Shown: one piece after another, positions 222-54,967 of the stretch | Layout of the letters: each line of letters opens with the position of its first letter | Numbering within the stretch: the stretch's first letter is position 1 | IMG/VR virus record: IMGVR_UViG_3300033412_000020 | Coordinates: 1-54,981 of that record | Strand: one strand, 5' to 3' | Source: a virus | Lineage: Duplodnaviria; Caudoviricetes | Length of the DNA: 54,981 bases | The notes under the pieces: model-generated | What the model was told of the DNA's origin: nothing | Seen by the model: the letters and a program-made list of their open reading frames with translations, nothing else | Database searches by the model: none | Translations under genes and position numbers: made by a program

Positions 222-824
222 CGACACGCCTCGCCATCTCGGCTCTACTGACAACGCGTGCCTCGTCTGCCCCATACCACTTCATCTCGCATCGACAGGC
301 CATCGCAGATCATCACACTGACAAGCCACTACCAACCGTCGACATGTCTGTACCTGCCAGCTCGGCCTTACCCGACGATACGAACCAGGTCTACGACGGT
401 ACGAGCCAAACCATGACGACAAGCCGATACTCGACGAATCAGTCCCTATCCGACATGCCACTACGTATCCACCCGACTCTAATGACATGTCACTAGCACC
501 CCCGTTCAGACCGACATGCCCAGCCCTCACCGGCCGGCTCGCCCGACATCACATGCCAAGCCCGACCGGCCTCGACGAACCTGTTCGAACCTAAGCCAAT
601 CCGACTGACCAGACCGTGTCCAAGACCGACTAACCAGGCCTTGCCGTTTCCAAGCGACACACCTCACCGTTCCCTGACTAAGCGACATCCCTGTTCATTG
701 CTCGTCAGCTCGGCCCGACACCACAGGCCGTTACATCTCCGTTTCTATCCGACTGGGCTCGTCAAACCTTCGCATCGGCCGACCAGGCACAACCTTTCAC
801 GCCACATCCCACCTAAACCACATA
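222..824 (+). repeat. pentamer-periodic non-coding array A: (NNNNC)n blocks punctuated by GAC
   Basis: Parses as e.g. GAC taacc aggcc ttgcc gtttc caagc GAC acacc tcacc gttcc ctgac taagc GAC atccc tgttc attgc tcgtc agctc ggccc GAC. About 20 blocks, no credible ORF. Confidence 0.85.
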
Positions 825-856
825 CGGCCTGCCACACTGATCAACGTGGCAGGCCG
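825..856 (+). terminator. hairpin closing array A
   Basis: Perfect 11-bp inverted repeat cggcctgccac / gtggcaggccg, with no U-tract. Confidence 0.5.
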
Positions 857-857
857 C

Positions 858-1226
858 ATGTCGTTGGAGCTGGCGCACCGTCAGGGCGCGCACCTGGACT
901 GTGGGCCACTACTGGACGAGTTCCTGGACCAGTTTGCCGGCAAAGACCTCGAACGCATCGTCATCGAGGGCGAAGTCATCAGCGACCAGTTCGTGTCGAC
1001 CGGCGAGGTCATGCACCCCGGCGCCACTGAGACGCTGATGGAGTACTGGACCCACGGCAAGGGCGCGGCGAAGATCCGGTGGGGCGTGGACGGTAGCTTC
1101 GCGCGCTGCGTGCGTCACCTGCGCAAGTACTTCCCGAAGAACCCGGAAGGCTTGTGCGCCAACCTTCACCACCGCGCCACCGGGGAGTGGCCCACTGAGC
1201 ATGGGAAGTTAGGCATACCTAGCTAG
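858..1226 (+). CDS. conserved-looking phage hypothetical protein
   Basis: Motif YW..GKGAAKIRWG..GSFARCVRHL.KY....EGLCANLH..ATGEWP resembles small Cys/His actinophage domains. GC3-rich codons. Confidence 0.65.
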   Translation: MSLELAHRQGAHLDCGPLLDEFLDQFAGKDLERIVIEGEVISDQFVSTGEVMHPGATETLMEYWTHGKGAAKIRWGVDGSFARCVRHLRKYFPKNPEGLCANLHHRATGEWPTEHGKLGIPS

Positions 1227-4121: not shown

Positions 4122-4141
4122 TCCTACCTGTTGTGTGTATC

Positions 4142-9077: not shown

Positions 9078-9103
9078 GAGAAGGCTCCCATCTTCTTCGT
9101 GCG

Positions 9104-9175
9104 TCTTCTCGGAAGGACTCGAACCTTCGACCAAGGGATTAAGAGGCCCCGGCTCTGCCACTGAGCTACGAGAAG
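9104..9175 (-). tRNA. tRNA-Lys(CTT)
   Basis: Acceptor CTTCTCG/CGAGAAG, D-arm GCTCAGTGGCAGAGC, anticodon loop CTCTTAA, T-arm GAAGGTTCGAGTCCTTC. Imperfect anticodon stem, no encoded CCA. Confidence 0.8.
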
Positions 9176-9349: not shown

Positions 9350-9423
9350 TAGCGGGAGTGGGATTCGAACCCACGATCTTCGGGTTATGAGCCCGACGGG
9401 CTGACCAGCTGCCCTATCCCGCG
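9350..9423 (-). tRNA. initiator-type tRNA-Met(CAT)
   Basis: CGCGGGA 5' end with 1:72 mismatch, GGG/CCC in the anticodon stem, CTCATAA loop, GGTTCGAATCC T-arm. Confidence 0.9.
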
Positions 9424-11028: not shown

Positions 11029-11463
11029 TCATTCCTTGCTGGCCGTCGGGTGAGTCGACGCTCTCCGGTGGCTCAGGTCGGAAGTCACGGAGCCAGTCAG
11101 GCTCCGGCCGCTATCGTACATGCCCTCGTTGACGCTGAGGACCAGGTCGATCCATTCCGCGCTCACGCCTTGATTGGCCTGAGACAAGGTCACCAGCTCC
11201 ACCACCACGTCGGCGGTGAGCTTGCGTACGAAGTCCCGGAACTTGGCCACCGGGATGGCGCCTTCCGGGTCGGCAACCGACGGTAGCCGGTTGCCGACGA
11301 TCCAGGCTTCGGTCTTGCTATCGAGCTGCATGCCCGCGCTCACGGCACTCGAAGCTGCAGGTGTGGACGCCGCGATCGCGGCTTCCCACCGTCGATCCTG
11401 TGCCATCTTCCTTGCCTGCTGTGCGGACCTGTGCGCGTTCCTCTTCCCACGGCCATACGCCAT
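11029..11463 (-). CDS. hypothetical protein
   Basis: GGAGG upstream of the ATG. Overlaps the 3' end of the TROVE ORF by 146 nt. Confidence 0.5.
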   Translation of the reverse strand: MAYGRGKRNAHRSAQQARKMAQDRRWEAAIAASTPAASSAVSAGMQLDSKTEAWIVGNRLPSVADPEGAIPVAKFRDFVRKLTADVVVELVTLSQANQGVSAEWIDLVLSVNEGMYDSGRSLTGSVTSDLSHRRASTHPTASKE

Positions 11464-12979: not shown

Positions 12980-13001
12980 GGTGCCTCCCATCAGAAAACA
13001 A

Positions 13002-27770: not shown

Positions 27771-28691
27771 ATGGCTTCCTACTGCTTCAAGCCCTTCAAG
27801 GTGCCGCGCGTGCGGGCCACCTTGCTGGACGCTTGTGGCACTCCGGTGACCGGTGACGGCTCGTCCGAGGTCACCACCGACGGCATTATCACCATCGAGC
27901 AGACCGCACAGCTCCAGGACATCGACGACTTCTACGAGAAGAATGCCGACGGCGCCTTCTGCATCGAGGAAGTCAACCCCGAGATCCTGAAGTGGTACTC
28001 CTACACGTTGACCTTCTGCAACGTCGACCCGGACCTGGTCTACCTGCTCACCCGGCAGGGACTGATTCTGGACGACGCGCCGACCCCGACAGCGGTGGGT
28101 AACCGGTCCGCCGAGGGCGACATCGCGCTGGTCAACTTCGCGTTCGAGTTCTGGACCCGGCTGGCCAACCAGGCTGACTGCGGTACGGGCGTGAAGTTTG
28201 GCTACGGCCTGGTGCCCTGGATGGTGCAGGGCAAGATGGGCGACGTCACGTACCAGAACGGCACCGCGAACTTCGTGGTGACCGCCCGTTCTCACCGTGA
28301 CGCGCTTTGGGGTGTCGGTCCGTACAATGTGTACAAGTCCAAGGCTCTGGCCACATTGGACCAGCCGATGCCACTACTGAGCGGCATGTCCGTACAGCCG
28401 GCAGACCACCGACTGTTCTTCGTCACTGGTCTACAGCCTCCGGTATCCGGCTGTGGTGCTCAGGCAGTTCCGCTGACGCTGGCTGCACCGGTCATCGCCG
28501 GCCAGCTGGTCACGGTCACCCTGCCGACCGGCGTTGCTCCAGCCTTCATTAACTGGGGTGACGGCAACGTCACGTCCAACGCTGCGGGACCGACCTCCCA
28601 ACACACATACAGCGGTACGGGCACCTACACGATCAAGGTGTGGCCCCAGGGCGTCTCGTCCCAGCCATACCAGCGCACCATCACTACCTGA
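27771..28691 (+). CDS. major tail protein with C-terminal PKD-like domain
   Basis: R.T.LD.CG.P, KNADG..C, FCNVDPD motifs, then INWGDG...HTY...GTYTI. Confidence 0.8.
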   Translation: MASYCFKPFKVPRVRATLLDACGTPVTGDGSSEVTTDGIITIEQTAQLQDIDDFYEKNADGAFCIEEVNPEILKWYSYTLTFCNVDPDLVYLLTRQGLILDDAPTPTAVGNRSAEGDIALVNFAFEFWTRLANQADCGTGVKFGYGLVPWMVQGKMGDVTYQNGTANFVVTARSHRDALWGVGPYNVYKSKALATLDQPMPLLSGMSVQPADHRLFFVTGLQPPVSGCGAQAVPLTLAAPVIAGQLVTVTLPTGVAPAFINWGDGNVTSNAAGPTSQHTYSGTGTYTIKVWPQGVSSQPYQRTITT

Positions 28692-28734
28692 GCAATAGCT
28701 GACTCAGCAACTACTGCACCAGCAAGGAGGGGTC

Positions 28735-29745
28735 ATGGCAGCCATTGGCTACACCGGCGGTGACCCCTCCAAGCTGGATGCTGGCGGGTACATCAAAGGT
28801 GACGTCGTCGCGGCCAATGCCAGCGGCGTGCTCACCCCCGTGCCGGTCGGCCCTGACACGGACGTGCTGACTGCTGACTCAGTAGCGGCGGAAGGCGTGG
28901 ACTGGCAAGCAGGTGGTGGAGGCGGTGGCGGTACGCCGTCGAACACCGTGGTCACCGAGACCACGTTCGGGCAGGCCTCCACTGCCGGCGTAGCAACTGC
29001 CTATTCACGCGGTGACCACACGCACGGAACGCCGGCCACGCCGTCGATGCCTGTTCCTGCAACTACTGTCACGAGCGAGACCACGTTCGGCATCGCGCCG
29101 GCCGTCGGAGTTGCAGCTCCATATGCTCGCGAAGACCACACACATGGCTCGCCAACGGCGCCGACCGCCGCCAGTGTGGGAGCCGATCCGGCTGGCACGG
29201 GAGCTGCGCAGGCAGCTGCTGTTGCTGCAACTATTGCTGACGCAAAGGCTGCCCGTTTCGGTCTGCAGCTGCTGACTATTGAATCCGGCGCGGTCACGAC
29301 AGACTTCAGCGTGAATGCCGGCGTCGCCGTTTTCGTGCTTGTCTTCTGTACTCGTTCAGTCACACTCACCACCTTGGGTGCATGGGTTACCGCACCGGGT
29401 GTCACCGGCTCTGGCGACAACAACATGGCCATTTACTCCGAGGCGGGTGTGCGGCTCGGCATTACTGGTGACATGACAGCCGCACTGTCGGCGGGTGACT
29501 GGGCCGAGGGAACGCTAACGTCCGGAGTTCCGATTGTTGTTGGAACAAGGTACTACCTACATCTGCTGACACATTTCTCTGGCACTGCGCCAAAGATCGC
29601 TGCTGGTGCAACTAGTTTCAATCACATCGCCATCAACGCACACCTGCCAACTATCTTCCTGACTGGCCAAGCTTCCAGTCCAGCGTCATTCAGTCCTGCT
29701 GGCGCGAGCGTCAATACGGCTGAATACTTCCTGGGGGCCCGATGA
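28735..29745 (+). CDS. fibre-like structural protein
   Basis: KGD....G.D..VLTADS....GV.W fibre motif and two TTFG...R.DHTHG repeats. Confidence 0.65.
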   Translation: MAAIGYTGGDPSKLDAGGYIKGDVVAANASGVLTPVPVGPDTDVLTADSVAAEGVDWQAGGGGGGGTPSNTVVTETTFGQASTAGVATAYSRGDHTHGTPATPSMPVPATTVTSETTFGIAPAVGVAAPYAREDHTHGSPTAPTAASVGADPAGTGAAQAAAVAATIADAKAARFGLQLLTIESGAVTTDFSVNAGVAVFVLVFCTRSVTLTTLGAWVTAPGVTGSGDNNMAIYSEAGVRLGITGDMTAALSAGDWAEGTLTSGVPIVVGTRYYLHLLTHFSGTAPKIAAGATSFNHIAINAHLPTIFLTGQASSPASFSPAGASVNTAEYFLGAR

Positions 29746-34774: not shown

Positions 34775-35728
34775 GTGCCCGCTATCACCGCCACGGTGCT
34801 GGATACCCTGGGCTTCTCGATCCTGAGCATCGACTGGACCGACGTGCCCAGCGAGACGTTCGCCAACGTGGTACGCACCGTCAATGGCATCGACACCATC
34901 GTGCGTATGCACACCTTCGTCGATCCCACGGGCGCCTACATCGAGCTGTCCGGTGGCCTGGCGACCATCTACGACACCGAGGCTCCGTTCAACACCCCGA
35001 TCACGTACACCACCACCGGTCTCACATCATTGCTGACCGCGAGTATCACGGTGACAATAACCAACGCCTTCCCCTGGCTGAAGTCTCCGCTGCACCCATG
35101 GGCCGACAAGCAGCTGGTGTACGTGCCCATCAGCTACTCAGGGCCAGGGTGTCTGCCCGGAGACTCCATTGTGTTCGCTCAGATGGGCGCGGAAGCTCGA
35201 CCCAACCGGACGACAGCCTTCTACCCCAACAACGCTGAGTTTCCCATTCCGGCCAACCGGACCAGGGGCTCGATCCAGTCCTCGCTACGTCTGGTGACGC
35301 GCACCTTCACCGCTCGCGACTCGATCATCACCTTGAACGCCTCCGGCGATCCGCTGCTCTTCCAGATCCCAGCCGCCTACGGCATCCCCGATCGCTACAT
35401 GACCGTGGGTGACTACACAGTGGACCGATTCAGCGCGGACCACAAGGTGGAGTGGCGGGCCAACACCCTCCCGCATGTCGCGGTCGAGTCCCCGCCAGGA
35501 CTGGCCGAAGGCGTGCTCGGTGTGCGTTGGATCGACCTCTGCAACCGGTACGTCACGTTCGACGACGCGAACGCGGCCGGCTTGACCTGGAGCCAAGTTC
35601 TCCTGGGTGAGGGTGTCTCGCCTCCGCTGCACTCCTTCTGCTCGTACAGTGACCTCGCTGCCGCGTACGCCACGTACAACGCGATGACAGCGGCCAATGT
35701 GGACTACAACGCATTGGAGGACTGCTGA
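34775..35728 (+). CDS. minor tail protein (distal tail position)
   Basis: First gene after the tape measure, with D.EAPF.....Y and WLK.P..P motifs. Confidence 0.7.
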   Translation: MPAITATVLDTLGFSILSIDWTDVPSETFANVVRTVNGIDTIVRMHTFVDPTGAYIELSGGLATIYDTEAPFNTPITYTTTGLTSLLTASITVTITNAFPWLKSPLHPWADKQLVYVPISYSGPGCLPGDSIVFAQMGAEARPNRTTAFYPNNAEFPIPANRTRGSIQSSLRLVTRTFTARDSIITLNASGDPLLFQIPAAYGIPDRYMTVGDYTVDRFSADHKVEWRANTLPHVAVESPPGLAEGVLGVRWIDLCNRYVTFDDANAAGLTWSQVLLGEGVSPPLHSFCSYSDLAAAYATYNAMTAANVDYNALEDC

Positions 35729-43279: not shown

Positions 43280-43939
43280 GTGAAAGCTCGCATCTACTCC
43301 GCCTTGTACGGAAGCTACGAGGAGCCCAAGTCCCTGCCTGCGGGTACACGAGGGCTCCTTTACGCTGACCGTCCCTACCTGTCGCGCGGCTGGGCGTACT
43401 CAGTCGCCAGGCATAACATCGTGACCCGGAAGGGTGACCCGCTACTGGTCGCCCCGATGCTGGCGCACAAGTACTGGAAGTGTCACCCTGGAGAGGCGTT
43501 GCCTAATGCGGATATTTCGATGTGGGTGGACGCGTCGATCCGGCTGGAGCCTGGATTCTTCGAGCGGGCAGTGGAAGCCCTCGGAGAAGATGACTGGCTT
43601 CTGGTACGACATCCATGGCGTAACTGTGTATACGAGGAGGTGGCGTATTCTGCCTCACTACCTCGGTATCAATCACTTAGTGCCGACCTTGAAGCACAAT
43701 CAGCCTGGTATGTGTCCCTGGGGCACCCGGCCAAGGGGGGCCTCCCGGCCACCGGGGTCATGGTCAGAAGACACACGCCCGAGGTCCTGGAAGCGTCGCG
43801 GCACTGGTGGCAAGAGTGCCTGAACTGGAGCCACCAGGACCAGGTCAGCCTGCCAGTCATACTGGACATGCTGAAGATCAAATACCGCTACGGACTGGAA
43901 TGGATGGATGGATGGGAAACCTTCCCACACAGCAAGTGA
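43280..43939 (+). CDS. glycosyltransferase-like protein (DUF616-like)
   Basis: YSAL.G.YE, KYWK..P, WVDAS, HP.RNCVYEE, DQVSLP motifs. Confidence 0.75.
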   Translation: MKARIYSALYGSYEEPKSLPAGTRGLLYADRPYLSRGWAYSVARHNIVTRKGDPLLVAPMLAHKYWKCHPGEALPNADISMWVDASIRLEPGFFERAVEALGEDDWLLVRHPWRNCVYEEVAYSASLPRYQSLSADLEAQSAWYVSLGHPAKGGLPATGVMVRRHTPEVLEASRHWWQECLNWSHQDQVSLPVILDMLKIKYRYGLEWMDGWETFPHSK

Positions 43940-46322: not shown

Positions 46323-46547
46323 TCAGACGGTGGGGGGCTTCACCGCCGCGTCCACCGGCACCTCGATGCCGTGCTCGCGCAGCGTGTTAGCTAGCAGCAG
46401 GTTGTACGCCTGACGGTCGGTGCTCTCCTGGTTCACGATCCTGTGAACTCCTCTGATCTCTTTCCAGAGCACCAGAAACGCCGCACTCAGTGGGACTGAT
46501 GCTCCCGCGATGGCGCCCACCACAACTGCTATGTCCCCCGAGGTCAT
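46323..46547 (-). CDS. small membrane protein
   Basis: One TM segment, then HRIVN motif. Confidence 0.6.
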   Translation of the reverse strand: MTSGDIAVVVGAIAGASVPLSAAFLVLWKEIRGVHRIVNQESTDRQAYNLLLANTLREHGIEVPVDAAVKPPTV

Positions 46548-47230
46548 TACGGCACCATGCCGTCGCTGTAGACGTTGTCGTAGTCAGTGACTCCTCGGGC
46601 ACTCAGGTGCGCTTCGATCTCTTCGTCGATGAGCTTCTGGTTAGCGACCGGCTTCGTTGGTTTCATCAGCCAGTCGTACTGGTGCTTGACCGCCCAGGCG
46701 TCCACGAGAGCGTGGTGCTCGATCAGCGGCGGTTCTTTCTCGACCGCCTGCCGCATGTCGTGCCAGACGGTCTCGCTGAGGATGCGTCGGAGCTGCTGGA
46801 GATCGTTCATCATCATCGGTAGGTTGCCCGGGACATCCTTGAACGGTCCGAAGAGCTGGGACAGCAGCACCATGTCGAAGGCGCAGTAATCGCCCCACAG
46901 CTCAACCCAGTCACCGCCGAGGAACGCTCGCGCCTTCTCGCGCAGCTCGTACAGTTCCATGAGGTGTTCGCTCTGACTGTTGGTGGGGTCCCATTCCAGG
47001 ATCGAGCCGGCCAGCCCGCGCCACTCGAACGGTGCCAGTGGCAGATGCGGCCACACGTGGTCGACGATGAACTGATCCATCGCCAACGCGCCCAGCGGGA
47101 CCTCCGCGTTGATCGCGTAGAACTCGTTGCCAGCGTCGTCGACCATGCCGAGCGAGATCAGGTGTAGTGGATGACCGGCGCCCCGGTTCAGGAACTCGGT
47201 TTCCACGAAAATGCGTTTTTCGCGCATCAT
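46547..47230 (-). CDS. 3'-5' exoribonuclease, DEDD / Rv2179c-like
   Basis: xTEF, LISLGMV....EFYA, ELWG.Y.A.D.V.L.QLFG, HHAL.DA motifs. First acidic residue is E rather than D. Confidence 0.85.
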   Translation of the reverse strand: MMREKRIFVETEFLNRGAGHPLHLISLGMVDDAGNEFYAINAEVPLGALAMDQFIVDHVWPHLPLAPFEWRGLAGSILEWDPTNSQSEHLMELYELREKARAFLGGDWVELWGDYCAFDMVLLSQLFGPFKDVPGNLPMMMNDLQQLRRILSETVWHDMRQAVEKEPPLIEHHALVDAWAVKHQYDWLMKPTKPVANQKLIDEEIEAHLSARGVTDYDNVYSDGMVP

Positions 47231-47409
47231 TTCTCCTCCTTGGCCTGTTTGTGCTGAATTTGCAGCTCGGTGAACGCGCCCCGGATCAGTTCCGCGTCAG
47301 GACCCCACATGTAGCCCACCACGCAGCCACTGGGGCACGAGAACTGGACCAACGTGTGCTCGGCCTGGGTGACGGACACCTTGCCGTGTAAGCGGTGTGC
47401 GTTGCTCAT
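47227..47409 (-). CDS. hypothetical protein
   Basis: Coupled ORF. Confidence 0.5.
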   Translation of the reverse strand: MSNAHRLHGKVSVTQAEHTLVQFSCPSGCVVGYMWGPDAELIRGAFTELQIQHKQAKEEK

Positions 47410-47690
47410 GGCTCTTCCCGAGGGATGTCCGCGAGCATGCGTAGCGCTTGGTCCTCGACTGTTGGCCAGAGCATCGTGTAGATGGTTCTGACCAGGTGCC
47501 AGGGGGTCAGCTGCTGCAGCATGAACTCCTGAGCCAGGTCAGCGTGGCGCTGACCCGCCTCGGGATCGCCGAGAACCTGGGCCATGTACGAGCTGACCAG
47601 GTGGGCGAGAACCTGGTCCATGACGACGCGGATCTCCCCATCCACCAAGCTCGGGTCGTCGTCCCATTCGGTCGTCATGGACTCGCTCAT
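47406..47690 (-). CDS. hypothetical protein
   Basis: Coupled ORF. Confidence 0.55.
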   Translation of the reverse strand: MSESMTTEWDDDPSLVDGEIRVVMDQVLAHLVSSYMAQVLGDPEAGQRHADLAQEFMLQQLTPWHLVRTIYTMLWPTVEDQALRMLADIPREEP

Positions 47691-48244
47691 TCCGGCTCCA
47701 ACGCTTCGCCGTAGCCGGCCGCGCGCACCAGCTCCACCATTTCACGGACCTGCACGGCGACGTACCAGCTGTCGACGTGCTCTTTCTTGCCCGGCGGGCA
47801 GTACCTGACCTGCCGTCGGACCCCGCGCAGGTTCGCCGAGATCTCCCGAGTGTTGCGCACCTGGACGGTATTCCACATCATGTGGTCCTCGCCGGCCTGC
47901 TTGACCGCCTCGGCCTGGAGGCGCATGAAGTCACCCAAGTACATGAACGCCGGCCACTGGCCGACGCTGAGAGCGCCAAGGCCAGGTGTCTTGCAGACCA
48001 GGATCGCGTGATCTGCCTTGCCGTTGGCTCGCTCCACATAGGTCTCGCGAAGCCAGGGACCGAGCTGGAAGCCACGGTGGGCGAGCTTGCACTCCCAGAC
48101 CAGACCAGGACAGCCCGTGACGTCGCCCTTGTCGAGAGCCCCCTGGAGGGACCGGCGCTCCGCGTACGGAAAGCCGGTCTCCTTCAGGTAGTTCACGAAG
48201 GCTGTCTCGACGGCAGTCCCCGCGATCTTGGGTTTGTTGACCAT
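47687..48244 (-). CDS. Holliday junction resolvase-like nuclease
   Basis: K..GT..ET..V.YL...GF..AERR...G..D.GD......V.ECK motif. Confidence 0.8.
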   Translation of the reverse strand: MVNKPKIAGTAVETAFVNYLKETGFPYAERRSLQGALDKGDVTGCPGLVWECKLAHRGFQLGPWLRETYVERANGKADHAILVCKTPGLGALSVGQWPAFMYLGDFMRLQAEAVKQAGEDHMMWNTVQVRNTREISANLRGVRRQVRYCPPGKKEHVDSWYVAVQVREMVELVRAAGYGEALEPE

Positions 48245-48245
48245 G

Positions 48246-48647
48246 TCAGTCGACGCGCTTGAACTGACGAACCTGGAACTGGTGGTACAGGTCCGCCTGA
48301 CCCATCCGGAACAAGTCCTTGTCGAACTTGGGCACCTCGACCAGGTGCGTGTACGCCTGATAGAGGTTCGGGTTCTTCTTCTTCAGCTCGGTCTCGTTGA
48401 CCCGGTCGATGCGCTTCCAGGTGAACACCACCTTGCCGGCCAAGGTGGCTTCCTCGCGGTCGCCGATGGCTTCCTTGAGCTTGGCCTGACAGGCTTCCAG
48501 CTTCTCCGTCCAGTCCGTGACGTACTCGCGGAGCATCTTCTCCATGAAGACGAGATCGGCGACCTCGTCCAGGATCGCTGGCTCGGCAACCTCGGTACTG
48601 GCGACGTCAGTCACCGTGGGTACGGCCAGGCGGTCGGTCTCACTCAT
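48246..48647 (-). CDS. hypothetical protein
   Basis: AGGAG RBS, coiled coil followed by LKE.IGD...TWK...L....P.LY motif. Confidence 0.65.
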   Translation of the reverse strand: MSETDRLAVPTVTDVASTEVAEPAILDEVADLVFMEKMLREYVTDWTEKLEACQAKLKEAIGDREEATLAGKVVFTWKRIDRVNETELKKKNPNLYQAYTHLVEVPKFDKDLFRMGQADLYHQFQVRQFKRVD

Positions 48648-48656
48648 TGCGGTCTC

Positions 48657-48731
48657 CTAGGTGAGCTTGCCCGGTCGCGGGTGCGGACGCGGGCTCCGTG
48701 GATCTACGGGGTGCGGGTCGGGGCGGGGCAC
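48657..48731 (-). CDS. 24-aa Pro/Arg-rich peptide (putative)
   Basis: GGAGG plus GTG, giving MPRPDPHPVDPRSPRPHPRPGKLT. Confidence 0.35.
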   Translation of the reverse strand: MPRPDPHPVDPRSPRPHPRPGKLT

Positions 48732-48787
48732 ACTACCTCCGAGGGTGTGTCGGTCTGGGCGGTGCGGGCGGCGGCTTCGGCGGTGTA

Positions 48788-49003
48788 CTAGGACCCGGCA
48801 TGAGCCACCACCTTCGTCGGCCGCGTCGGCCGTGGCTTCGGGTCCGGCCGTGGCTCGGTCGGGGGCCGGAAGCCGGCGCTAATGAACTTCTTCGGCGGCT
48901 TCGGTGGCTTCGGCTTCTTCGGTTCCGGCTCGATCGGGTAGTACAACGCGATCTTCGGCGGGGTGGTTGGCGGGTCGCCTGGGGGCTTCTGAGGGTCGCC
49001 CAT
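48788..49003 (-). CDS. 71-aa Pro/Lys-rich protein
   Basis: AGGAGG RBS before the ATG at 49003. Confidence 0.55.
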   Translation of the reverse strand: MGDPQKPPGDPPTTPPKIALYYPIEPEPKKPKPPKPPKKFISAGFRPPTEPRPDPKPRPTRPTKVVAHAGS

Positions 49004-49011
49004 GCTTCCTC

Positions 49012-49257
49012 CTAGAAGAGGGTTTGATCTTCTTCCAGCCTGGGTGGGGCTGGCGGTAGCTTCGATCGGTTGGTGCCGATGCACGCGGGACACAGGTGGG
49101 ATTCGAGCGGGTTCCCGCCGAAGGTCATGCCCTCGAACAAGTGCCAGCCTTTCGCGCTGGCCTTGGCGGCGAGCTTGCCCTTGTCCAGGCCGTGCGCGAG
49201 AAGCAGGCTCGTGCACGACCTGGTACTGCAGGACAGATCTCCGGCGGGAGTCCACAC
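49012..49257 (-). CDS. small Cys-containing protein
   Basis: CxxxxC...GW...CPAC pattern. Confidence 0.55.
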   Translation of the reverse strand: MWTPAGDLSCSTRSCTSLLLAHGLDKGKLAAKASAKGWHLFEGMTFGGNPLESHLCPACIGTNRSKLPPAPPRLEEDQTLF

Positions 49258-49258
49258 G

Positions 49259-49636
49259 TCAGATCTCCTGCATCGAGGTGGTGATGGCGCCGATCGTCAC
49301 AATCCGTCGACGGTACTTGCGGACGTACGCAGCCTGCAAGGCAGCTGTTGGTGCTTCGTTGTCAAGGCGCGCATGCCGTGGCCGGTACTCGGAATTGCTA
49401 CCGAGCACTCGCTCCACGCTGGCGCGCCAACGCTTCCAGGCCATCTCCCACCCAACGAGGTGGCCCCACATGGGCATGGCGTTCTCCTTCCGAAGCGCGC
49501 GGGCTTCCCGGCGCTCCTGCCTATCGGTTACGCGGTCAGGATTACGGAGGTTCCCGAGGTGCATCACCCCCAACGCTACGAGCGCCGAGGAGCCGACGAC
49601 GATCAGAACGATTCCGAACATCTCTGTGAAAGACAT
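49259..49636 (-). CDS. membrane-anchored hypothetical protein
   Basis: GGAGG RBS before the ATG at 49636, N-terminal TM. The longer ORF call runs through array B and is probably over-extended. Confidence 0.65.
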   Translation of the reverse strand: MSFTEMFGIVLIVVGSSALVALGVMHLGNLRNPDRVTDRQERREARALRKENAMPMWGHLVGWEMAWKRWRASVERVLGSNSEYRPRHARLDNEAPTAALQAAYVRKYRRRIVTIGAITTSMQEI

Positions 49637-49649
49637 CTCGGGAACCTCC

Positions 49650-50090
49650 AGGAGTATCGGGGAGAACTTCAGATGTGGCCCGTATCGTCGGGTCTGTAGT
49701 TGGTTGGCTCGCCTGGTCGGGGCTAACTCGGCTTGTCGGACGAGATATGTCAACGGCCTGAAGTGTCGGACGAAGACTGGGTCGAGCACGGCCTGTCGGT
49801 AGGCGGATGGAATAGTGCGGTGCGGTGAGTGAATGGGGCGGTGCGGTCGAACGCTGTTGAGATGAGCAGGCAAGTCGACCGTGAGGGCCAGCGCAGAATA
49901 GTCGGTAAGGATGGCAAATCTGGTGAGGATAGTCGAGCTGGATTGGTGTGTAAGCGGATCTGACAAGTTTGGTCGGAATGGGTCAGGCTAGAGCCGAAGC
50001 CGATCCGAAATGTCGATGGGGAGTGAAGTGAGAGGACGAGTATCGATTAGTCGCTAGAGTTGGAGTGAAGCGACTGAGGTTGATCGGTCG
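49650..50090 (-). repeat. pentamer-periodic non-coding array B, downstream of the Cas7-like gene
   Basis: Minus strand begins right after the TAG: CGAC cgatc aacct cagtc gcttc actcc aactc tagc GAC taatc gatac tcgtc ctctc acttc actcc ccatc GAC... Confidence 0.85.
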
Positions 50091-51023
50091 CTAGGATGTG
50101 GCCTTACGCGCCGCGAGCTTGCGAGGAGTCGGCTTCGCTGCCGCTTCGTCCGCCTCTTCCTTCAGCTTCTTGGCCTTGGCCATCATCTTCTCTTTCGCCT
50201 TGGCGTTGACGGCCGGGTCTGTGGTGTCCTTCCACTGGATGACCTTGTGTCGGCCGTAGCCCTGCGAGCGGGAGGCGCCGAGCCCGTTGAACTCCTGGGT
50301 GGTCCAGATCATGCCCCACTCCTCGGGGGAGAGGTAGTAGTCGGCCATCACGGTGAACTTGAGACGGGCGTTGTTGACGTACTCCTGGTACTGCAGGGCC
50401 GAGCCGAACCGGGTGTGCACGAAGTGCTGGATGACGCCCGTCGGCTCCCACACTGGAACCTCGTTACGGTCGGTCAGCAGCAGTTCGTCCTCGACGACGA
50501 AGAAGTGCTCAGCGAAGAAGCTGAGCAGTCCCTTGTTGGTGGTACCCCAGCCACGCCCGGGCAGCTTGCCGGAGGCGACCGCGATGTTTGCGGCCTCCTT
50601 CAGGCCAGCCTTGAGCTGCCGGCCGGACACGTACAGCTGGTGCTCGGTGATCGGGCACAGCGGGCCGGTCTCCTCGCAGTCGCGGCAGCGCGCCCGGAGG
50701 AAGCCGTTCAGGCTTCGGTTCTTCGCCACCTCGGCGGTAGCGTCCTCCTGACTGATGCCGCGCTCCTCAACGATCTTCATGACCTGGTTGCGGATCTCGA
50801 CCTCCTTGTCCAGGCCGAGCTTGGTACGCAGCCAGCCTTCGATCACGTTCGGATCGCTGGGCACGCCGCCAAGGATGTTGCGTAGCAGCAGTTCGCCCTC
50901 GTACCGGAACGGGTACGAGGAGGCGAGCATGCCCTCGAAGACGGACCGGAACTGAGGGATGTCGTCGTCTGGGACAACGAGGTCTTCCAGGTTGTCTACG
51001 GGGTCAACCAATTCGATAGGCAT
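50091..51023 (-). CDS. stand-alone Cas7/RAMP-superfamily protein
   Basis: LYVSGRQLKAGLKEAA matches the RAMP xIPGSSxKGxxR helix motif. GLGASRSQGYGR is the C-terminal Gly-rich loop. CxxC...C...H insertion, AGGAG RBS. Confidence 0.8.
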   Translation of the reverse strand: MPIELVDPVDNLEDLVVPDDDIPQFRSVFEGMLASSYPFRYEGELLLRNILGGVPSDPNVIEGWLRTKLGLDKEVEIRNQVMKIVEERGISQEDATAEVAKNRSLNGFLRARCRDCEETGPLCPITEHQLYVSGRQLKAGLKEAANIAVASGKLPGRGWGTTNKGLLSFFAEHFFVVEDELLLTDRNEVPVWEPTGVIQHFVHTRFGSALQYQEYVNNARLKFTVMADYYLSPEEWGMIWTTQEFNGLGASRSQGYGRHKVIQWKDTTDPAVNAKAKEKMMAKAKKLKEEADEAAAKPTPRKLAARKATS

Positions 51024-51035
51024 GAAGGTCTCCTA

Positions 51036-51368
51036 GGTGTGTCGGATCTGGGCTGAAGCGAATGGTTGGGTACGGGATAGGTCCGTCGGGTTGTGGAAGG
51101 ACTAGTCGGGAGTGAATGGGCTCGTCGGGAACAGGTTCGTCAGAGGAATGTGGCGAAGTGCCTGTATCGAACTGTCAAGTAGTGGGGTTCCGAGCCGAAT
51201 AGTCGAGATGGATTGGGGGAAAGAGGGAACGGGATGAAGAGTCGATGCGAAAGGATTGGGTTAGGTTTGTCGCATGATCCGAAGAGTCCCGTGTCGTGTC
51301 GTCGATGTGTTGGAGAGAACAGGTCCGTCGAGGCGACGGGAGATGAACTGCGATGAAACGGCGAGTCA
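51036..51368 (-). repeat. pentamer-periodic non-coding array C, upstream of the Cas7-like gene
   Basis: Minus strand: TGAC tcgcc gtttc atcgc agttc atctc ccgtc gcctc GAC ggacc tgttc tctcc aacac atc GAC ... GAC ggacc tatcc cgtac ccaac cattc gcttc agccc agatc CGAC acacc, then the RBS. Confidence 0.88.
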
Positions 51369-52265
51369 GAACGTGACGTTGAACTGCGCGGTCAGCTTTC
51401 TCTTCAATTCCTCCACTGTGCTGGCGTAATCGGCAGCGAAGATCTCGCTCACGTTTGTGCCGAGCGCTTCGCTGGCCAGGCGTTCCCAGAGCCCATCGTT
51501 CATTTGATTGGCTTCGATGGACCGCTCCAGGTAGTTAATCTGGTAGACGTCGCTGGGTTTGCCCTCCTTCTTCAGACGGTCCAGCCTCAGCTGTAGTAGC
51601 GCCTTGCCGGACTTGCCGAGCTTGCCGTTGTACCGGTTGTATCCGACCAGCGTGGTGGTCCAGCCAGCGAGGCAGAACTGGGTGCCGCACAACGTCTTCG
51701 GCGGGTTGTCCTGGTCCTCCTGGGAACGACTCCAGGCCCCCTGGTTCCAGTTCTCGGGGTATGCCTCGATCATGGCCACAACCGCTCGCAGTAGCGGGAC
51801 GTTGAGTCCCTGCGGCACGGGGCCGGCCAGTGCGGGCGCGACGACGACGCCGGTCTTCTCTTCGATGACCCGCATCATCTCCGCAGCGTTGAAGCCCGGT
51901 TCCCGTGTGCCGGCCAGGAAGAGGGGGTGCGTCTCTTCGTAGTAGGAGCCCTCCTTGTACAGGCCAAAGATCTCCTCGCCGAGCTTGGTCCAGTCCCGGT
52001 TCTCCAGTCCTACCGGCGTGTAGCCGTCGTAGCGCTCCTGAGCCCAGGTGCGCCCCTGTTTGGTGAGCTTGCCGTCCGTACGCACGTAGCCGGCGAGGTA
52101 GGCACCCCAGCCGGCGAGACAGAAGCTGGTTCCGCAGAAGTTCTTCTGCAGTTCCGGCTCGTGGTTTTCCTCAGTCGCCGAGCACCACTTGGCCTGGTCC
52201 CAGTTTTCCGGGAAGGCCAGGATCATGTTGCCTGCGGCGCGGATGAGGGCTTCGTTCACGGTCAT
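51366..52265 (-). CDS. hypothetical protein with an internally duplicated domain
   Basis: Two copies of N..L.RA...MI.A.PENW.Q..W...CGT.FCLAGW, GAGGAG RBS. Confidence 0.75.
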   Translation of the reverse strand: MTVNEALIRAAGNMILAFPENWDQAKWCSATEENHEPELQKNFCGTSFCLAGWGAYLAGYVRTDGKLTKQGRTWAQERYDGYTPVGLENRDWTKLGEEIFGLYKEGSYYEETHPLFLAGTREPGFNAAEMMRVIEEKTGVVVAPALAGPVPQGLNVPLLRAVVAMIEAYPENWNQGAWSRSQEDQDNPPKTLCGTQFCLAGWTTTLVGYNRYNGKLGKSGKALLQLRLDRLKKEGKPSDVYQINYLERSIEANQMNDGLWERLASEALGTNVSEIFAADYASTVEELKRKLTAQFNVTF

Positions 52266-52335
52266 GTTGGTCTCCTCAGTAGAACGAGAAGGGCCCGAGC
52301 GTACGTGAGCGTCGGGCCCCCCTGTTATTTCAGCA

Positions 52336-52365
52336 AGTCTAGTGGGGATATGGAGGTGTAGTCAA
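52336..52365 (-). promoter_or_regulatory. SigA-like promoter upstream of the array / Cas7-like unit
   Basis: TTGACT-N18-TAGACT on the minus strand. Confidence 0.5.
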
Positions 52366-52368
52366 CCC

Positions 52369-52701
52369 TTAGGCTGGGACGTCCTCCTCGACTTCCGCTC
52401 GTACCCGGTGTCTAGTGAGCAACCGGCTCACCGTGGGCCCCGACAGGCCCGACTCGCTGACGATCTCGGCCGGCGACATGCCCAGCTCGTCTTTCGCGCA
52501 CTGAGCGGCGGCCTTGCGCATCTCGCTGGTCAGTCGCATGAGTTGATCTCGCATGAGATCGATGAGGTCCCGGCCAATGACAATCTGGTCGATGGGATTG
52601 CGCCCGTCCAGGATGTCCACCAGGGCTTTACGGAGCACGGCCTGCTCCTCTGTGTCAATCCAACCCTCCTTGGGGCTACAGATTGCTTCTACGTTGATCA
52701 T
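52369..52701 (-). CDS. helix-turn-helix DNA-binding protein
   Basis: GMSPAEIVSESGLSGPTVSRLL HTH motif. Confidence 0.7.
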   Translation of the reverse strand: MINVEAICSPKEGWIDTEEQAVLRKALVDILDGRNPIDQIVIGRDLIDLMRDQLMRLTSEMRKAAAQCAKDELGMSPAEIVSESGLSGPTVSRLLTRHRVRAEVEEDVPA

Positions 52702-52787
52702 TGTTCTCCCGTTTGGGCTGGTAGGGGGTGGCCTTAGCGTACGACAGGGGTATGTACCCGTAAAGGTCAACTCAGGCCTGGACATGG

Positions 52788-52828
52788 AGCAGCCCCCGAG
52801 CCGGTTGGTAGCTGGCTCGGGGGCTGCT
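52788..52828 (-). terminator. hairpin after the paralog cluster
   Basis: 15-bp stem agcagcccccgagcc / ggctcgggggctgct. Confidence 0.6.
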
Positions 52829-52844
52829 GGTTCATACGCCCCGC

Positions 52845-53324
52845 CTACGGGTGGGTTTCTTCCTGCTCCAGCTCGACGGCTTCCTGTTCCAGCTCGGCCG
52901 CTTTCTGTGCTTCGAGTTCTTCCATCAAGCTGTTCTCGATCAGATCGGCCAGCCGATCGAAGGTGTACACGCCGCCACTGTCGTTCAACTCAGCCAGATT
53001 GGAGTGACGACCGAAGATGTCATCGTCGGCTTCGACGGAGGTACAGACCGTAGGGTCGACCTCGTGCAGTCCCGCCCAGAGCATCACGCTGTACGGCAGG
53101 GCCTTGGTGTCCGTGCCATCGTAGATCCAATGAGGAGGACTGACGACGTCGCGAGGCATAACCGATGTGCGCTTGGCCGGAAGGATGACGCCGTCCTGGA
53201 CGGCCAGCTCGCACAGTACGCCGAGGCAACAGAACCCTTCCTCGGTCCGCAGGTAGCCCTCGGCTTGCCGGTACTCGCCGGAGCGCAGCGCCGCGACCCA
53301 ACGCTCCTTGATGTCCGCTTTCAT
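52845..53324 (-). CDS. CCLGVLC-family hypothetical protein, copy 1
   Basis: W..ALRSG.Y.Q...L...FCCLGVLCE...LND....F..LAD.IE. Confidence 0.8.
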   Translation of the reverse strand: MKADIKERWVAALRSGEYRQAEGYLRTEEGFCCLGVLCELAVQDGVILPAKRTSVMPRDVVSPPHWIYDGTDTKALPYSVMLWAGLHEVDPTVCTSVEADDDIFGRHSNLAELNDSGGVYTFDRLADLIENSLMEELEAQKAAELEQEAVELEQEETHP

Positions 53325-53755
53325 AGCTGCTCCTCGATGACGTCTGCGATCTCGTTGAAGCTCAGGTGTCGTTGATCGTTGAGTTCCGAAAGCGAGACAA
53401 GCTGCCCCTCGTACTCAATGACGGGATCGCCGTAACTAAGAGCGCTTCGGAATTTACCGTTACCCCAGGCCCACGCAGTGACCCGAGGAGGCAGATGGCT
53501 CGTGTCACCGTCGTAGAAGTAGGTGTTCTTCCCTTCTTGTCCGAACATCATTTCTTTTACCCGGCGTATCGGTGACTCTTGGTCGCTCCTGATGGCCACC
53601 TCGCACAGCACACCGAGGCAGCAGAACTTCTCCTGTCCGTCTCTGTCGCGCATACCGAGCCGGCCAATGCCTTGCTCGTACTCGCCACTGCGGAGTGCGG
53701 TGAGCCAGGCTGCCTTGATCTCCGGCCGCATTCGGGGAGTAGTAGTCGTGGTCAT
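53321..53755 (-). CDS. CCLGVLC-family hypothetical protein, copy 2
   Basis: Same motif set, ATGA coupling. Confidence 0.8.
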   Translation of the reverse strand: MTTTTTPRMRPEIKAAWLTALRSGEYEQGIGRLGMRDRDGQEKFCCLGVLCEVAIRSDQESPIRRVKEMMFGQEGKNTYFYDGDTSHLPPRVTAWAWGNGKFRSALSYGDPVIEYEGQLVSLSELNDQRHLSFNEIADVIEEQL

Positions 53756-54201
53756 AGCTGCGCCTCGATGATGTCTGCGATCTGGTGGAAGTTGTATCGA
53801 TGGCAATCGTTGAGCCCGGACAGGCGTGTCGGGGCACCGAATCGCTCGCCATCCCCGTCGCGCTGCAGCATGATCATTGGGTCCCGCAGTTGAGCGATCG
53901 TGCCAGCCTTGCGCCCGAGACCCCCCCAGGCCCACCGAATGACTGCGGTCGGCAGATCGCTGGAATAGCCGCTGTACGTGTATGCCGCCACGTTGGGGTT
54001 ACCACTGGCAAGTTCGTCGCGCTTGATGGCTCCGTCCTGACGTGCCAGCTCGCACAGCACACCGAGGCAGCAGAACTTCTCCTGTCCGTCGGTGCCGCGC
54101 ATACCGAGCCGGCCGGTGCCCTGCTCGTACTGGTCAGACCGGAGTGCCGCGAGCCAGCGCTCCTTGATCTCCGGCCTCATCTTGGCCTCGATGTCGGTCA
54201 T
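53752..54201 (-). CDS. CCLGVLC-family hypothetical protein, copy 3
   Basis: Same motif set, GGAGGT RBS. Confidence 0.8.
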   Translation of the reverse strand: MTDIEAKMRPEIKERWLAALRSDQYEQGTGRLGMRGTDGQEKFCCLGVLCELARQDGAIKRDELASGNPNVAAYTYSGYSSDLPTAVIRWAWGGLGRKAGTIAQLRDPMIMLQRDGDGERFGAPTRLSGLNDCHRYNFHQIADIIEAQL

Positions 54202-54464
54202 ACCTCCCCCTTCCTGGGCATCAGGTAGAAGATGCTGCGGAAGAGCAGGATCACGACGGTCGACGTCCAGAAGCCCCAGTTCGGGACCAGCCAGGTGAGA
54301 TCCGAGTGCAGGATGCCCAGCAGCAGCATGAACATCCAGCCCCGGGTTGCTATCGCCACGCCGGTAACGACGATGGCCTGGACGCAACCCTTCAGCCCGG
54401 TGGGCTTCGGGCGCTTCATCACCCGGTAGATCTCGTCGTAGTTGATGATGGGGGTGCCGGTCAC
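54198..54464 (-). CDS. membrane protein
   Basis: Hydrophobic segments, coupled at both ends. Confidence 0.65.
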   Translation of the reverse strand: MTGTPIINYDEIYRVMKRPKPTGLKGCVQAIVVTGVAIATRGWMFMLLLGILHSDLTWLVPNWGFWTSTVVILLFRSIFYLMPRKGEV

Positions 54465-54967
54465 AGCTGCTCCTCGATGAGTTGGGCGATCTGCTCGAAT
54501 GTGAGACGAGCCCGATCATTGATGATCGGCAGGCCCAACCGCGCCGTACCGTCGGCCTCCACCTCATTTCTGAGATGTTCGTGATCATCTTCCTTGAGAG
54601 GCAGCCACGCCTCGGGCACCTTTACCTTGGGACTGTGTGCTAGCCCCTCGAAGTCCGCACGGCGCGGAAAGCCAGCCCAGCGACGGACGCTGGCTGGTGG
54701 GTAGCCGGCAAAGAAGCCTTCCTCGAATCCGAGGGCGTCGGTCATGCCACCGTACTGCCACGCTCCGAACTTCCGTCGCCTCGTGACACCTGCGTCCACG
54801 GCCAGCTCGCACAGCACGCCGAGGCAGCAGAAGGTGTCGTCGGAGCTGCGCAGGTACTCGCGGCCTTGTGTGTAGTCGCCGGACCGGAGCGCCGCGACCC
54901 ATGCCGCTTTGACCTCCGGATCGAGCTTCCCAGAATGTGGAACGGTTTGATCTTGTCCCAAATTCAC
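54461..54967 (-). CDS. CCLGVLC-family hypothetical protein, copy 4
   Basis: Same motif set. Start uncertain. Confidence 0.78.
   Translation of the reverse strand: MNLGQDQTVPHSGKLDPEVKAAWVAALRSGDYTQGREYLRSSDDTFCCLGVLCELAVDAGVTRRRKFGAWQYGGMTDALGFEEGFFAGYPPASVRRWAGFPRRADFEGLAHSPKVKVPEAWLPLKEDDHEHLRNEVEADGTARLGLPIINDRARLTFEQIAQLIEEQL

Follow-up and report, generated by a model that had tools for sequence, protein, structure and literature searches.

The window (the whole stretch of 54,981 nucleotides analyzed here) carries on its – strand a vipr-like gene (50091..51023), whose 310-aa product was assigned to the Cas7-type RAMP fold from the ORF call, AlphaFold, Foldseek and hhalign. Two non-coding tracts adjoin this gene directly. 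Array B (51024..51365, 342 nt) lies upstream and fills the space between the preceding gene's stop codon and the ribosome-binding site of vipr, and array A (49640..50090, 451 nt) lies downstream, where the first CGAC follows immediately after the vipr stop codon. Both tracts are G-rich on the + strand (G 0.40, C 0.16–0.17) and C-rich on the – strand, which is that of the operon. Their lengths agree with an earlier interpretation made from the letters alone (hereafter, the sequence-only reading), which had described ~330 nt upstream and ~440 nt downstream of non-coding sequence without exact repeats; TRF likewise detected no tandem repeat in either flank. A third tract, array C (222..845), is the cleanest of the three; it is G-rich on the – strand and C-rich on the + strand, and sits between + strand genes at 18-221 and 846/858-1226, so that, compared with arrays A and B, the array is turned around together with its neighboring genes. 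Where array C ends, immediately ahead of the next start codon, there is an 11-bp stem-loop (820..863, + strand, –26.4 kcal/mol), and an Rfam search of the window identified no structured RNA in the arrays. Further G-rich stretches (14111-14510, 21132-21471, 34932-35421 and 43471-43640) look coding on inspection and were not taken as arrays.

The gene upstream of array B (51366..52265, – strand) is co-oriented with vipr and encodes 299 aa with two repeats of the phrog_889 domain; it holds the slot that a different conserved partner gene occupies in most relatives. The next gene after array A is a 125-aa ORF (49259..49636, – strand; an inner start of ORF 49259..49966), in which an N-terminal hydrophobic segment was recognized by eye and which had no PHROG match. 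Pfam, PHROGs and the Atlas placed these vipr neighbors in no known family, and the Atlas search provided no usable lead for either the 299-aa gene or the relatives' partner gene. The sole sigma-70-like promoter match between 49000 and 52400, TTGACT-18-TAGACT (52336..52365, – strand), stands ahead of the 299-aa gene and is weak (1 observed versus 0.6 expected in shuffles); counts of promoters and terminators across this region were at chance level. PHROGs identified the terminase, portal, major head, major tail, tape measure and endolysin genes of a tailed soil phage, and 9 of 10 genomic relatives are classed as Actinomycetota; the host is probably an actinobacterium. No terminal repeat was found at the contig ends.

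We located in the translation of the 310-aa ORF all of the features that the sequence-only reading had reported, namely the RAMP motif YVSGRQLKAGLKEAA (residues 131-145), the G-loop GLGASRSQGYGR (residues 247-258) and a cysteine/histidine insertion (C113-x2-C116-x6-C123-x4-H128). The protein further contains helix-1 (GRQLKAGLKEA), a long beta-hairpin (residues 196-227) and a C-terminal tail rich in Lys and Ala. In an alignment of 47 family sequences the G-loop is invariant, and the knuckle at residues 113-128 is optional: of 47 close relatives, 19 have it. The AlphaFold model (pLDDT 80) yielded 95 PDB matches in Foldseek at E ≤ 1e-3, and those listed were Cas7-type chains, including type VII Cas7 (6e-6), Csm3, Csf2 and Cas7-11; the RAMP fold that had been proposed was thus recovered by structure. 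A structure search of BFVD gave three matches at E ≤ 1e-3, one of them named as a RAMP protein. Sequence searches with the ORF assigned no family in Pfam or PHROGs and returned nothing significant in the PDB (best E 0.63). The locus had no blastn match in the phage collection; the sole tblastn match of the protein was Microcystis phage Mae-JY09, of which a literature search found no mention.

VIPR systems were first described in 2026 preprints (10.64898/2026.04.26.720920; 10.64898/2026.04.26.720927), in which the type II system of Escherichia phage SUSP1 comprises Vipr (ALH47069), vap1 and four vrRNAs. We compared profiles of the window protein with the SUSP1 family, whose Vipr is experimentally validated. 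The alignment of a broad profile with the SUSP1-family profile covered 135 columns, helix-1 through G-loop (hhalign, 95.0%, E 3.6e-8). The narrow family profile gave 0.7% (E 0.078) and the single sequence 0.4%, and an HMM search of SUSP1 with the vipr-like family gave no match; the homology to Vipr is visible with the broad profile only. The window protein belongs to a large family of unnamed proteins, mostly from actinobacterial phages and prophages, in which 720 clusters (50% identity) score E ≤ 1e-3; one member is encoded at a prophage locus (L057) of Nocardiopsis tropica JCM 10877.

We then analyzed the periodicity of the flanks on the + strand, where the C at every fifth base of the gene strand appears as a G at every fifth base. 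A lag-5 autocorrelation peak had been predicted beforehand, and it was observed in both flanks: G co-occurrence at lag 5 reached z = 2.9 in array A (equalled by 5 of 1000 dinucleotide shuffles) and z = 4.5 in array B (0 of 1000), with z = 6.4 against shuffles in array C. The vipr coding sequence showed periodicity at lag 3 (z = 2.4) and none at lag 5 (z = –0.2). Across the whole 55-kb window, the period-5 power of G peaks at 51041 (11.4, versus a window-wide 99th percentile of 5.4). The GAC punctuation noted earlier is also present in both flanks, as GTCG on the + strand or CGAC on the gene strand, with 14 marks in array A and 11 in array B; array C has 20. Altogether 45 marks bound ~40 short units of ~4–8 pentamers, ~10 of these units being in array B. 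At positions –5, –10 and –15 from the marks, G was found in 13/14, 10/14 and 9/14 cases in array A, in 10/11, 8/11 and 8/11 cases in array B, and in 19/20 cases at each position in array C. The claim of a C at every fifth base therefore stands near the marks, for about three pentamers per unit, and does not stand farther out, where the five-base phase fades.

No cas1, cas2, cas5 or cas6 gene was found when 50 ORFs (42 + 8, all but ~10 small ones) were compared with PHROGs, and neither TRF nor Rfam detected a CRISPR array in the window, in agreement with the sequence-only reading. The sole Cas-flavored match was a Cas4-like/RecB-type exonuclease (6114-6953), 43 kb from vipr.

The flanks of homologous genes were checked for the same periodicity, and at least one array was present at 43 of 46 phage loci encoding a vipr relative. 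In the 1 kb upstream of the gene, runs of at least four exact GG pentamers covered 9.2% of the antisense strand and 0.1% of the sense strand, compared with 1.0% far away. The family logo consists of GG-g-N-N pentamers with an inserted GTC; the third position is biased toward G rather than a pyrimidine. The relatives' units are ~5–8 pentamers long (mostly 6–7) and are set apart by the GTC, and the spacing of marks peaks at 28/33/38/43 nt, with 409 of 1019 spacings being of the form 5k+3. In 32 of the 46 loci a partner gene, an array and vipr follow one another, all co-oriented. This conserved partner gene of ~180 aa, which lies upstream of vipr, had weak matches in Pfam and PHROGs (E 0.006–0.067) and was not found in the window (best hmmsearch E 0.68).

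The linkage bears on the alternative that the periodic tracts work at the DNA level, for example as protein-binding iterons, as signals for replication or packaging, or as G-quadruplexes, and that their adjacency to a RAMP gene is unrelated. GG every 5 nt could in principle form two-tier quadruplexes, none of the sequencing runs listed for this sequence is an RNA run, and on the linear contig a long distance separates array C from vipr. However, vipr is the only gene shared by the very different phages that carry arrays, its product is homologous to an RNA-guided effector, and one relative's guide reads the vipr of another phage in frame by the published code (see below). We consider a role as DNA highly improbable.

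The arrays of the window are degenerate: mostly one fixed letter is left and the spacing is irregular. This raises the possibility of a decaying or idle VIPR locus, in which the protein is intact and drift has left the arrays with a single fixed letter, units of irregular length and no working guides. In accordance with such decay, no run of at least four exact GG pentamers is present in the window's flanks, where relatives have many, the mark spacings mix 5k, 5k+3 and 5k+4, and the window's guides had no targets in our searches. However, the protein keeps every residue that is invariant across the 47-sequence alignment, and a significant 5-nt phase is retained in three separate arrays. Moreover, the arrays of a relative whose vipr is 82% identical are just as loose but made of other units, a pattern that points to turnover and not to decay, and NNNNG repeats are described as a natural variant in the text of the published work. 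We consider decay an unlikely account of the locus.

To examine the targeting code, we parsed 259 units, read two variable letters (NN) per pentamer and allowed a skip of 0–3 nt in the target. With a 1-nt skip, 35 exact 14-base matches were obtained versus 1.2 ± 1.3 in shuffled controls; skips of 0, 2 or 3 gave 2 matches each, and none of the alternative codes (pairing by three letters of each pentamer; pairing by positions 3-4; skips 0, 2 and 3) was enriched. Of the 35 skip-1 matches (second test), 34 trace to one guide, from locus L017, and the support for the skip rule is essentially one guide matching homologous sites. This guide matches the KVAEGWL codons in the vipr genes of other loci at 16/16 bases in 11 loci and at 15/16 in six, with the skipped base falling on the wobble position, and matches its own phage's vipr at 14/16. 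The third pentamer letter agrees with the skipped target base at no more than 6 of 8 positions. Guides that target vipr with wobble alignment are reported for SUSP1-type phages in the text of a further preprint (10.64898/2026.10.15.759431).

The nine window guides with at least five in-phase pentamers gave nothing above shuffled controls against 406 kb of related loci. IMG/VR was scanned twice with patterns: 11 stretches (7 distinct sequences) matched at 16 specified bases and 2 stretches at 18 specified bases, and on the strand that matched none of them had an open frame. Going by a rough estimate of the collection size, these yields are at about chance level. A search for targets with masked positions, as suggested in the sequence-only reading, gave matches for one relative's guide at a skip of one base and nothing above chance level for the guides of the window itself.

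The fold, the profile homology, the co-occurrence of gene and arrays, and one relative's gapped-code guide together support the idea of a CRISPR-independent, VIPR-like system with a solo RAMP and pentamer-coded arrays. We conclude with considerable confidence that the window holds a VIPR system, of the known kind in which a lone Cas7-like protein accompanies guide arrays with a five-base step. The 310-aa protein is very probably a Vipr-family RAMP and the three skewed non-coding tracts its guide arrays. By analogy with the SUSP1 work, we infer the steps of transcription, processing, coating and silencing as follows. The arrays would be transcribed, and the 3-nt separator would be either a cleavage site or the boundary of a unit. 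Vipr protomers would coat each unit, one per pentamer, as the published text reports from cryo-EM of SUSP1 Vipr (10.64898/2026.04.26.720927), and would hold the fixed letter or letters while exposing two variable letters per pentamer. The exposed letters would pair with double-stranded DNA with every third target base skipped, and a unit of 6–8 pentamers would thereby read 12–16 bases of a rival element and silence it.

We further considered which strand serves as the guide. The G-rich strand is antisense to vipr and the neighboring genes in 107 of 109 flanks that could be decided; this total combines 92 of 93 flanks in the main set of loci with 15 of 16 in a further 13, counted as cases where the strand of the adjoining genes is the one on which the array is C-rich. 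This rule also holds for inverted arrays, namely array C of the window and those of L033, L038 and L042; neither a strand rule of this kind nor the residue replacement described next was found in the text and legends of the published VIPR work. In SUSP1, Vipr reads GG through D177, W178 and R138, according to the published text (10.64898/2026.04.26.720927). These residues are conserved in the SUSP1 family (D177 in 33/40, an aromatic residue at 178 in 40/40, R138 in 40/40) and are replaced in the alignment of the window family, where D177 corresponds to A250 (44/47), position 178 to S251 (47/47) and R138 to Q/E213; SUSP1 R179 is retained as R252. The flank orientation, the tight fit of the arrays against the ribosome-binding site and against the stop codon of vipr, which leaves no room for a promoter of their own, the co-oriented gene order, the co-orientation of the SUSP1 arrays with vipr and the replaced GG-reading residues lead us to lean slightly toward the operon's own C-rich strand as the guide, 5'-GAC-(NN-n-CC)k, which would be co-transcribed with vipr. 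The sequence-only reading had proposed that the protein reads the C of the sense strand and that this may be a distinct variant, and the strand rule and the replaced residues favor both ideas. We put just short of even the chance that the actinophage clade as a whole uses the C-rich transcript of its operon, with an anchor switched from GG to CC through replacement of the Asp, aromatic and Arg residues and with the 3-nt separator in the place of the structured tail.

Another reading of the same VIPR system is that the guides are antisense, G-anchored RNAs, (GG-n-NN)k-GTC, of the published relaxed NNNGG/NNNNG type, transcribed from promoters that would point in the direction opposite to the operon. 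On the G strand, the fixed letters, the semi-fixed one and the variable ones come in the same order as in GGY-NN, and the phase is locked to the mark 3' on the G strand, as SUSP1 repeats are to their 3' tail. As far as the published text goes, NNNGG, YNNNG and NNNNG repeats and staggered arrays are already on record, every vrRNA sequenced or validated so far is G-anchored, and the NNNGG/NNNNG variants would make an antisense reading equally simple. The best hairpins slightly favored the 3' side of the G strand, in frequency and in stability (mean –18.1 kcal/mol, versus –16.4 kcal/mol on the 3' side of the C strand; Wilcoxon test, P = 0.014); as a test of the strand, hairpin position is not discriminating and is slightly opposite to the sense-strand lean. 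However, this reading requires antisense promoters inside vipr or at its 5' end, where the N-terminus is not conserved, and no promoter-like site was found on the + strand between 49000 and 52400. The strand rule, co-inverted arrays included, the sense orientation of the SUSP1 arrays and the replacement of the residues that read GG also argue against it. We regard antisense guides as a reasonable possibility, at somewhat less than an even chance.

VIPR systems, which bind DNA under the guidance of RNA with minimal machinery, were first described only months ago, and those tested are limited to a few from E. coli and Pseudomonas. The window locus is part of a large uncharacterized branch whose mini-guides lack tails and are separated by GTC and whose arrays strictly follow the inverted strand rule. 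An array orientation opposite to that of the model system is an unusual trait of this locus. If the guide is the C-rich sense RNA, the anchor letters would be evolvable, which would bear on how Vipr reads RNA and on the engineering of orthogonal systems, and a CC anchor, if true, would mean that one gapped code for reading DNA has two anchor alphabets, the second complementary to the first. If the guide is instead the antisense G-rich RNA, the clade would represent obligatory production of antisense guides inside phage operons. The anti-vipr guide of a relative carries VIPR-against-VIPR conflict beyond SUSP1-type phages.

Among known systems, the Cas7 backbone of class 1 CRISPR complexes (Csm3, type VII Cas7, Csf2) shares with the window protein the RRM core, the G-loop and the beta-hairpin thumb, and provides the best structural matches. 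In contrast to these complexes, the window locus is phage-borne and shows a 5-nt rather than a 6-nt step, and we found in the window no repeat-spacer array, Cas5, Cas6, large subunit or other cas gene of such a complex.

The SUSP1 VIPR resembles the window locus more closely: a lone small RAMP with G-loop and thumb and profile-level homology, long non-coding flanks with 5-nt steps on both sides of vipr, and a phage-borne setting without a CRISPR array. Its code of two variable letters per pentamer with one base skipped fits one relative's guide here. However, the GGY-NN arrays of SUSP1 are on the vipr strand, whereas the G strand of the window clade is antisense, and the canonical GGY-NN repeat was not found on the vipr strand in that clade. 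The third position is a pyrimidine in the SUSP1 repeat and not in the window clade, and the window keeps about one fixed letter. SUSP1 units have 9–16 repeats and a tail, whereas those of the window clade have ~5–8 pentamers with GTC between them and leave no room for a tail or pseudoknot; the conserved structured 3' tail of type II is absent, with 28–43 nt from mark to mark and GTC only between units. The window protein is longer (310 aa versus 195 aa), with an extra helical insert, the optional Zn-knuckle-like motif and a basic tail, and differs at D177, W178 and R138. vap1, present in SUSP1, has no homologue here; VIPR loci typically, though not universally, carry such an accessory vap gene beside vipr.

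Non-canonical arrays found by a genomic language model (10.64898/2026.10.21.760802), as its text describes them, have period 5, fixed letters other than GGY and C-containing fixed triplets such as GAC/NN and CAC/NN, and adjoin Vipr-like folds, as in the window; there the triplet is the repeating unit (~10 repeats), whereas in the window GAC stands between successive series of NN-n-CC (or GG-n-NN) pentamers and separates them. The text of the VIPR preprint (10.64898/2026.04.26.720920) also accepts NNNGG, YNNNG and NNNNG as related consensus repeats. Compared through its text and legends (methods and the legend of fig. S18), the alternative-repeat and staggered types resemble the window in having relaxed pentamers and tail-less units in which the end of one is the start of the next.

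We examined the two flanks of the vipr-like ORF (50091–51023, minus strand), which lies within a co-oriented block of minus-strand genes (46323–54967) in a sequence of 63% G+C carrying tailed-phage genes for terminase, portal, major head, major tail, tape measure, endolysin, primase, RusA and RNase H. Neither the upstream flank (array B, 51024–51365; 342 nt) nor the downstream flank (array A, 49640–50090; 451 nt) has a credible coding signal, and on the plus strand both are strongly skewed in composition (G 40%, C 16–17%). A third, cleaner array that was absent from the sequence-only reading was found at 222–845 (array C). Within the gene block, positions 51366–54967 (minus strand) hold five tandem paralogues with a common Cys-rich motif (FCCLGVLCE / FCLAGW), matching two families of unknown function, phrog_889 and phrog_18067. 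The first paralogue, immediately upstream of array B, is a fusion of two repeats. Also on the minus strand are a Cas4-like/RecB-type exonuclease (6114–6953), two adjoining ParB-like genes (7426–9161), two tRNA genes (9104–9175 and 9350–9423) and a 557-aa protein (11321–12991) matching phrog_850 'RNA-binding protein' (E 2.6e-42).

We computed G–G co-occurrence at lag 5 and compared it with dinucleotide-preserving shuffles (1000 for the vipr flanks). The lag-5 signal that the sequence-only reading had anticipated in the flanks proved real, both in array A (z = 2.9; reached by 5 of 1000 shuffles) and in array B (z = 4.5; reached by 0 of 1000), and array C gave z = 6.4; the vipr coding sequence had a signal at lag 3 and none at lag 5, and the top period-5 G power of the entire window fell at 51041. 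The GAC punctuation described earlier corresponds to the mark GTCG on the plus strand (CGAC on the gene strand), with 14 marks in array A, 11 in array B and 20 in array C. At 5, 10 and 15 nt before a mark, G occupied 13/14, 10/14 and 9/14 sites in array A and 10/11, 8/11 and 8/11 in array B, and 19/20 at each offset in array C. Accordingly, the claim of a C at every fifth base (G on the plus strand) holds near the marks and weakens farther from them in arrays A and B, where the phase loosens; the claimed lack of exact repeats agrees with TRF, which found no repeat in these two arrays. A strong 11-bp stem-loop (820–863, plus strand; –26.4 kcal/mol) sits between array C and the start codon that follows it, and a comparable perfect hairpin comes after the array of phage Mae-JY09, which encodes a relative (locus L001, about 4090–4125).

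We then compared loci encoding relatives of the protein (45 from IMG/VR, phage Mae-JY09, 10 genomic and 3 metagenome); going by record titles, nine of the 10 genomic loci belong to Actinomycetota, and vipr is the sole gene that the window and the 46 phage loci have in common. On the strand complementary to the gene, 42 of the 45 loci yielded 1038 pentamers of the form GG-g-N-N, far clearer than in the window and grouped in units with GTC inserted between them. Mark spacings peaked at 28, 33, 38 and 43 nt (5k+3 in 409 of 1019), and runs of at least four exact GG-pentamers within 1 kb upstream of the gene covered 9.2% of the antisense strand versus 0.1% of the sense strand. The periodic flanks predicted for homologues were thus present, by our own criteria, in 43 of 46 loci, and in two of the three array-less loci the sequence stops a short way upstream of the gene. 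In the window this grammar takes a loose form, usually with one fixed letter and mixed spacings, and its arrays contain no exact GG-pentamer run of four or more. The same loose style occurs in L080, a relative's locus whose vipr is 82% identical to that of the window; only part of the arrays can be aligned between the two (67% over 215 nt), compared with 72% over 1280 nt for the flanking gene, so the arrays turn over faster than the genes. Near the start of array B (51286–51312), a 17-nt block (CGACGACACGACACGGG, gene strand) is identical in L080, the array being otherwise mostly diverged; this block may serve in processing or regulation.

The motifs cited in the sequence-only reading are present in the 310-aa translation, and its CxxC..C..H insertion is real, yet optional (19 of 47 close and 3 of 53 broader relatives). 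The protein matched no Pfam or PHROG family and had no sequence relative in the PDB; a word-indexed search returned 491 relatives, all without a name, and an exhaustive profile search 720 clusters at 50% identity (E ≤ 1e-3; 165 of them at E ≤ 1e-30). Modelled with AlphaFold from 47 sequences (pLDDT 80), the protein gave 95 Foldseek matches in the PDB at E ≤ 1e-3, and those listed are Cas7-type chains from type VII, III-A, IV-A and Cas7-11 complexes, in line with the proposed Cas7 relationship; in BFVD, three matches passed, one of them named RAMP protein. Residues 268–310 (50091–50220) form a Lys/Ala-rich helical C-terminal tail (AKAKEKMMAKAKKLKEE...), found only in some relatives, that resembles basic DNA-binding tails.

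VIPR systems, which pair a Vipr protein with vrRNA guide arrays, were first described in April 2026 (10.64898/2026.04.26.720920; structural companion 10.64898/2026.04.26.720927). In the model type II system of Escherichia phage SUSP1 (KT454805.2), vipr lies at 28474–29061 (minus strand) with the accessory gene vap1 adjoining and YNNGG arrays on the vipr strand. An HMM of the window's family did not match SUSP1, and narrow comparisons with SUSP1 Vipr were weak (0.4% and 0.7%). A broad window-family profile (53 sequences, Neff 4.3) matched the SUSP1-family profile (40 sequences) with 95.0% probability (E 3.6e-8) over 135 columns that run from helix 1 to the G-loop and include the thumb hairpin. 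From this match and the modelled fold, we take the window protein to be a member of the Vipr superfamily.

To decode guides, we parsed 259 units from all loci, joined pentamer positions 4–5 with 0–3 skipped bases and, after masking the arrays, searched for them in the 406 kb of DNA collected. The 1-nt skip alone stood out, with 35 exact 14-base matches versus 1.2 ± 1.3 in order-shuffled controls; skips of 0, 2 and 3 gave two matches each. A looser second parse gave 35 matches (controls, 4.6 ± 2.2), 34 of them from one guide, the unit adjoining the vipr start of a relative's locus (L017:2955–2997). Its eight dinucleotides equal codon positions 1–2 of the conserved KVAEGWL(K/N) in the vipr of other loci, at 16/16 in 11 loci and 15/16 in six, each skipped base being a wobble position; it fits its own vipr at 14/16. 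Since the target sites are homologous, these matches amount in effect to a single event counted repeatedly, and the signal is supportive, not conclusive. The preprint 10.64898/2026.10.15.759431 describes likewise wobble-aligned guides of SUSP1-type phages against early vipr codons, and the L017 guide could, judging from its match, serve anti-VIPR warfare or autoregulation. The gapped-mask search proposed earlier gave this supportive signal for a relative; the window's own guides had no target above controls in the collected loci, and the match counts of two IMG/VR scans with them were judged to be chance.

Whereas the G-rich repeat strand of SUSP1 is the vipr strand, that of the window clade is the opposite one. 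This strand rule tracks local genes, not vipr itself. The 67 arrays gave 93 flanks that could be decided and 41 that could not, and in 92 of the 93 the flanking gene lay on the strand where the array is C-rich; arrays inverted along with their neighbours (window array C and three relatives' loci, L033, L038 and L042) are among them. The rule also held in 15 of 16 decidable flanks of 13 further loci. With a slightly better than even chance, the guide would be a C-anchored sense RNA, 5΄-GAC-(NN-n-CC)k, co-transcribed with the operon. A guide from the G-rich antisense strand, read as GG-n-NN, has a chance just short of even: this is exactly the published layout with the third letter relaxed, NNNGG and NNNNG variants are already reported (10.64898/2026.04.26.720920), and vrRNAs sequenced to date are all G-anchored, as far as described, and a hairpin test points slightly the same way. 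However, the arrays run right up to the ribosome-binding site and the stop codon of vipr, and a conserved gene of about 180 aa, the array and vipr follow one another on one strand in 32 of 46 loci. Moreover, the SUSP1 residues that read two guanines, conserved in the SUSP1 family, align to Ala, Ser and Gln/Glu in the window clade, and the pyrimidine-contacting Arg is retained (roles from 10.64898/2026.04.26.720927). The ~180-aa gene (about 300–1500 nt upstream in L003–L046; e.g. L005:1000–1605), for which the window has no counterpart, matched no Pfam family and phrog_4604 only weakly; in the relatives it is a candidate for an accessory (vap-like) role.

Sequence and a modelled fold mark the window locus as a VIPR system, as the resemblance noted earlier had suggested: its fold, its homology, the type of locus and the grammar of the arrays all agree, as does the targeting code in a relative. 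That the feature is real and belongs to an already known VIPR kind is well supported, and the specific question that it poses is which strand serves as the guide and which letters anchor it. The locus departs from the canonical GGY-NN on the gene strand, and both the type II tail and vap1 are absent from it. The preprint 10.64898/2026.04.26.720920, however, distinguishes seven VIPR types, among them alternative repeats and 'staggered' arrays that lack tails, and a later preprint (10.64898/2026.10.21.760802) reports non-GGY anchors; the window clade may already be typed in the former.
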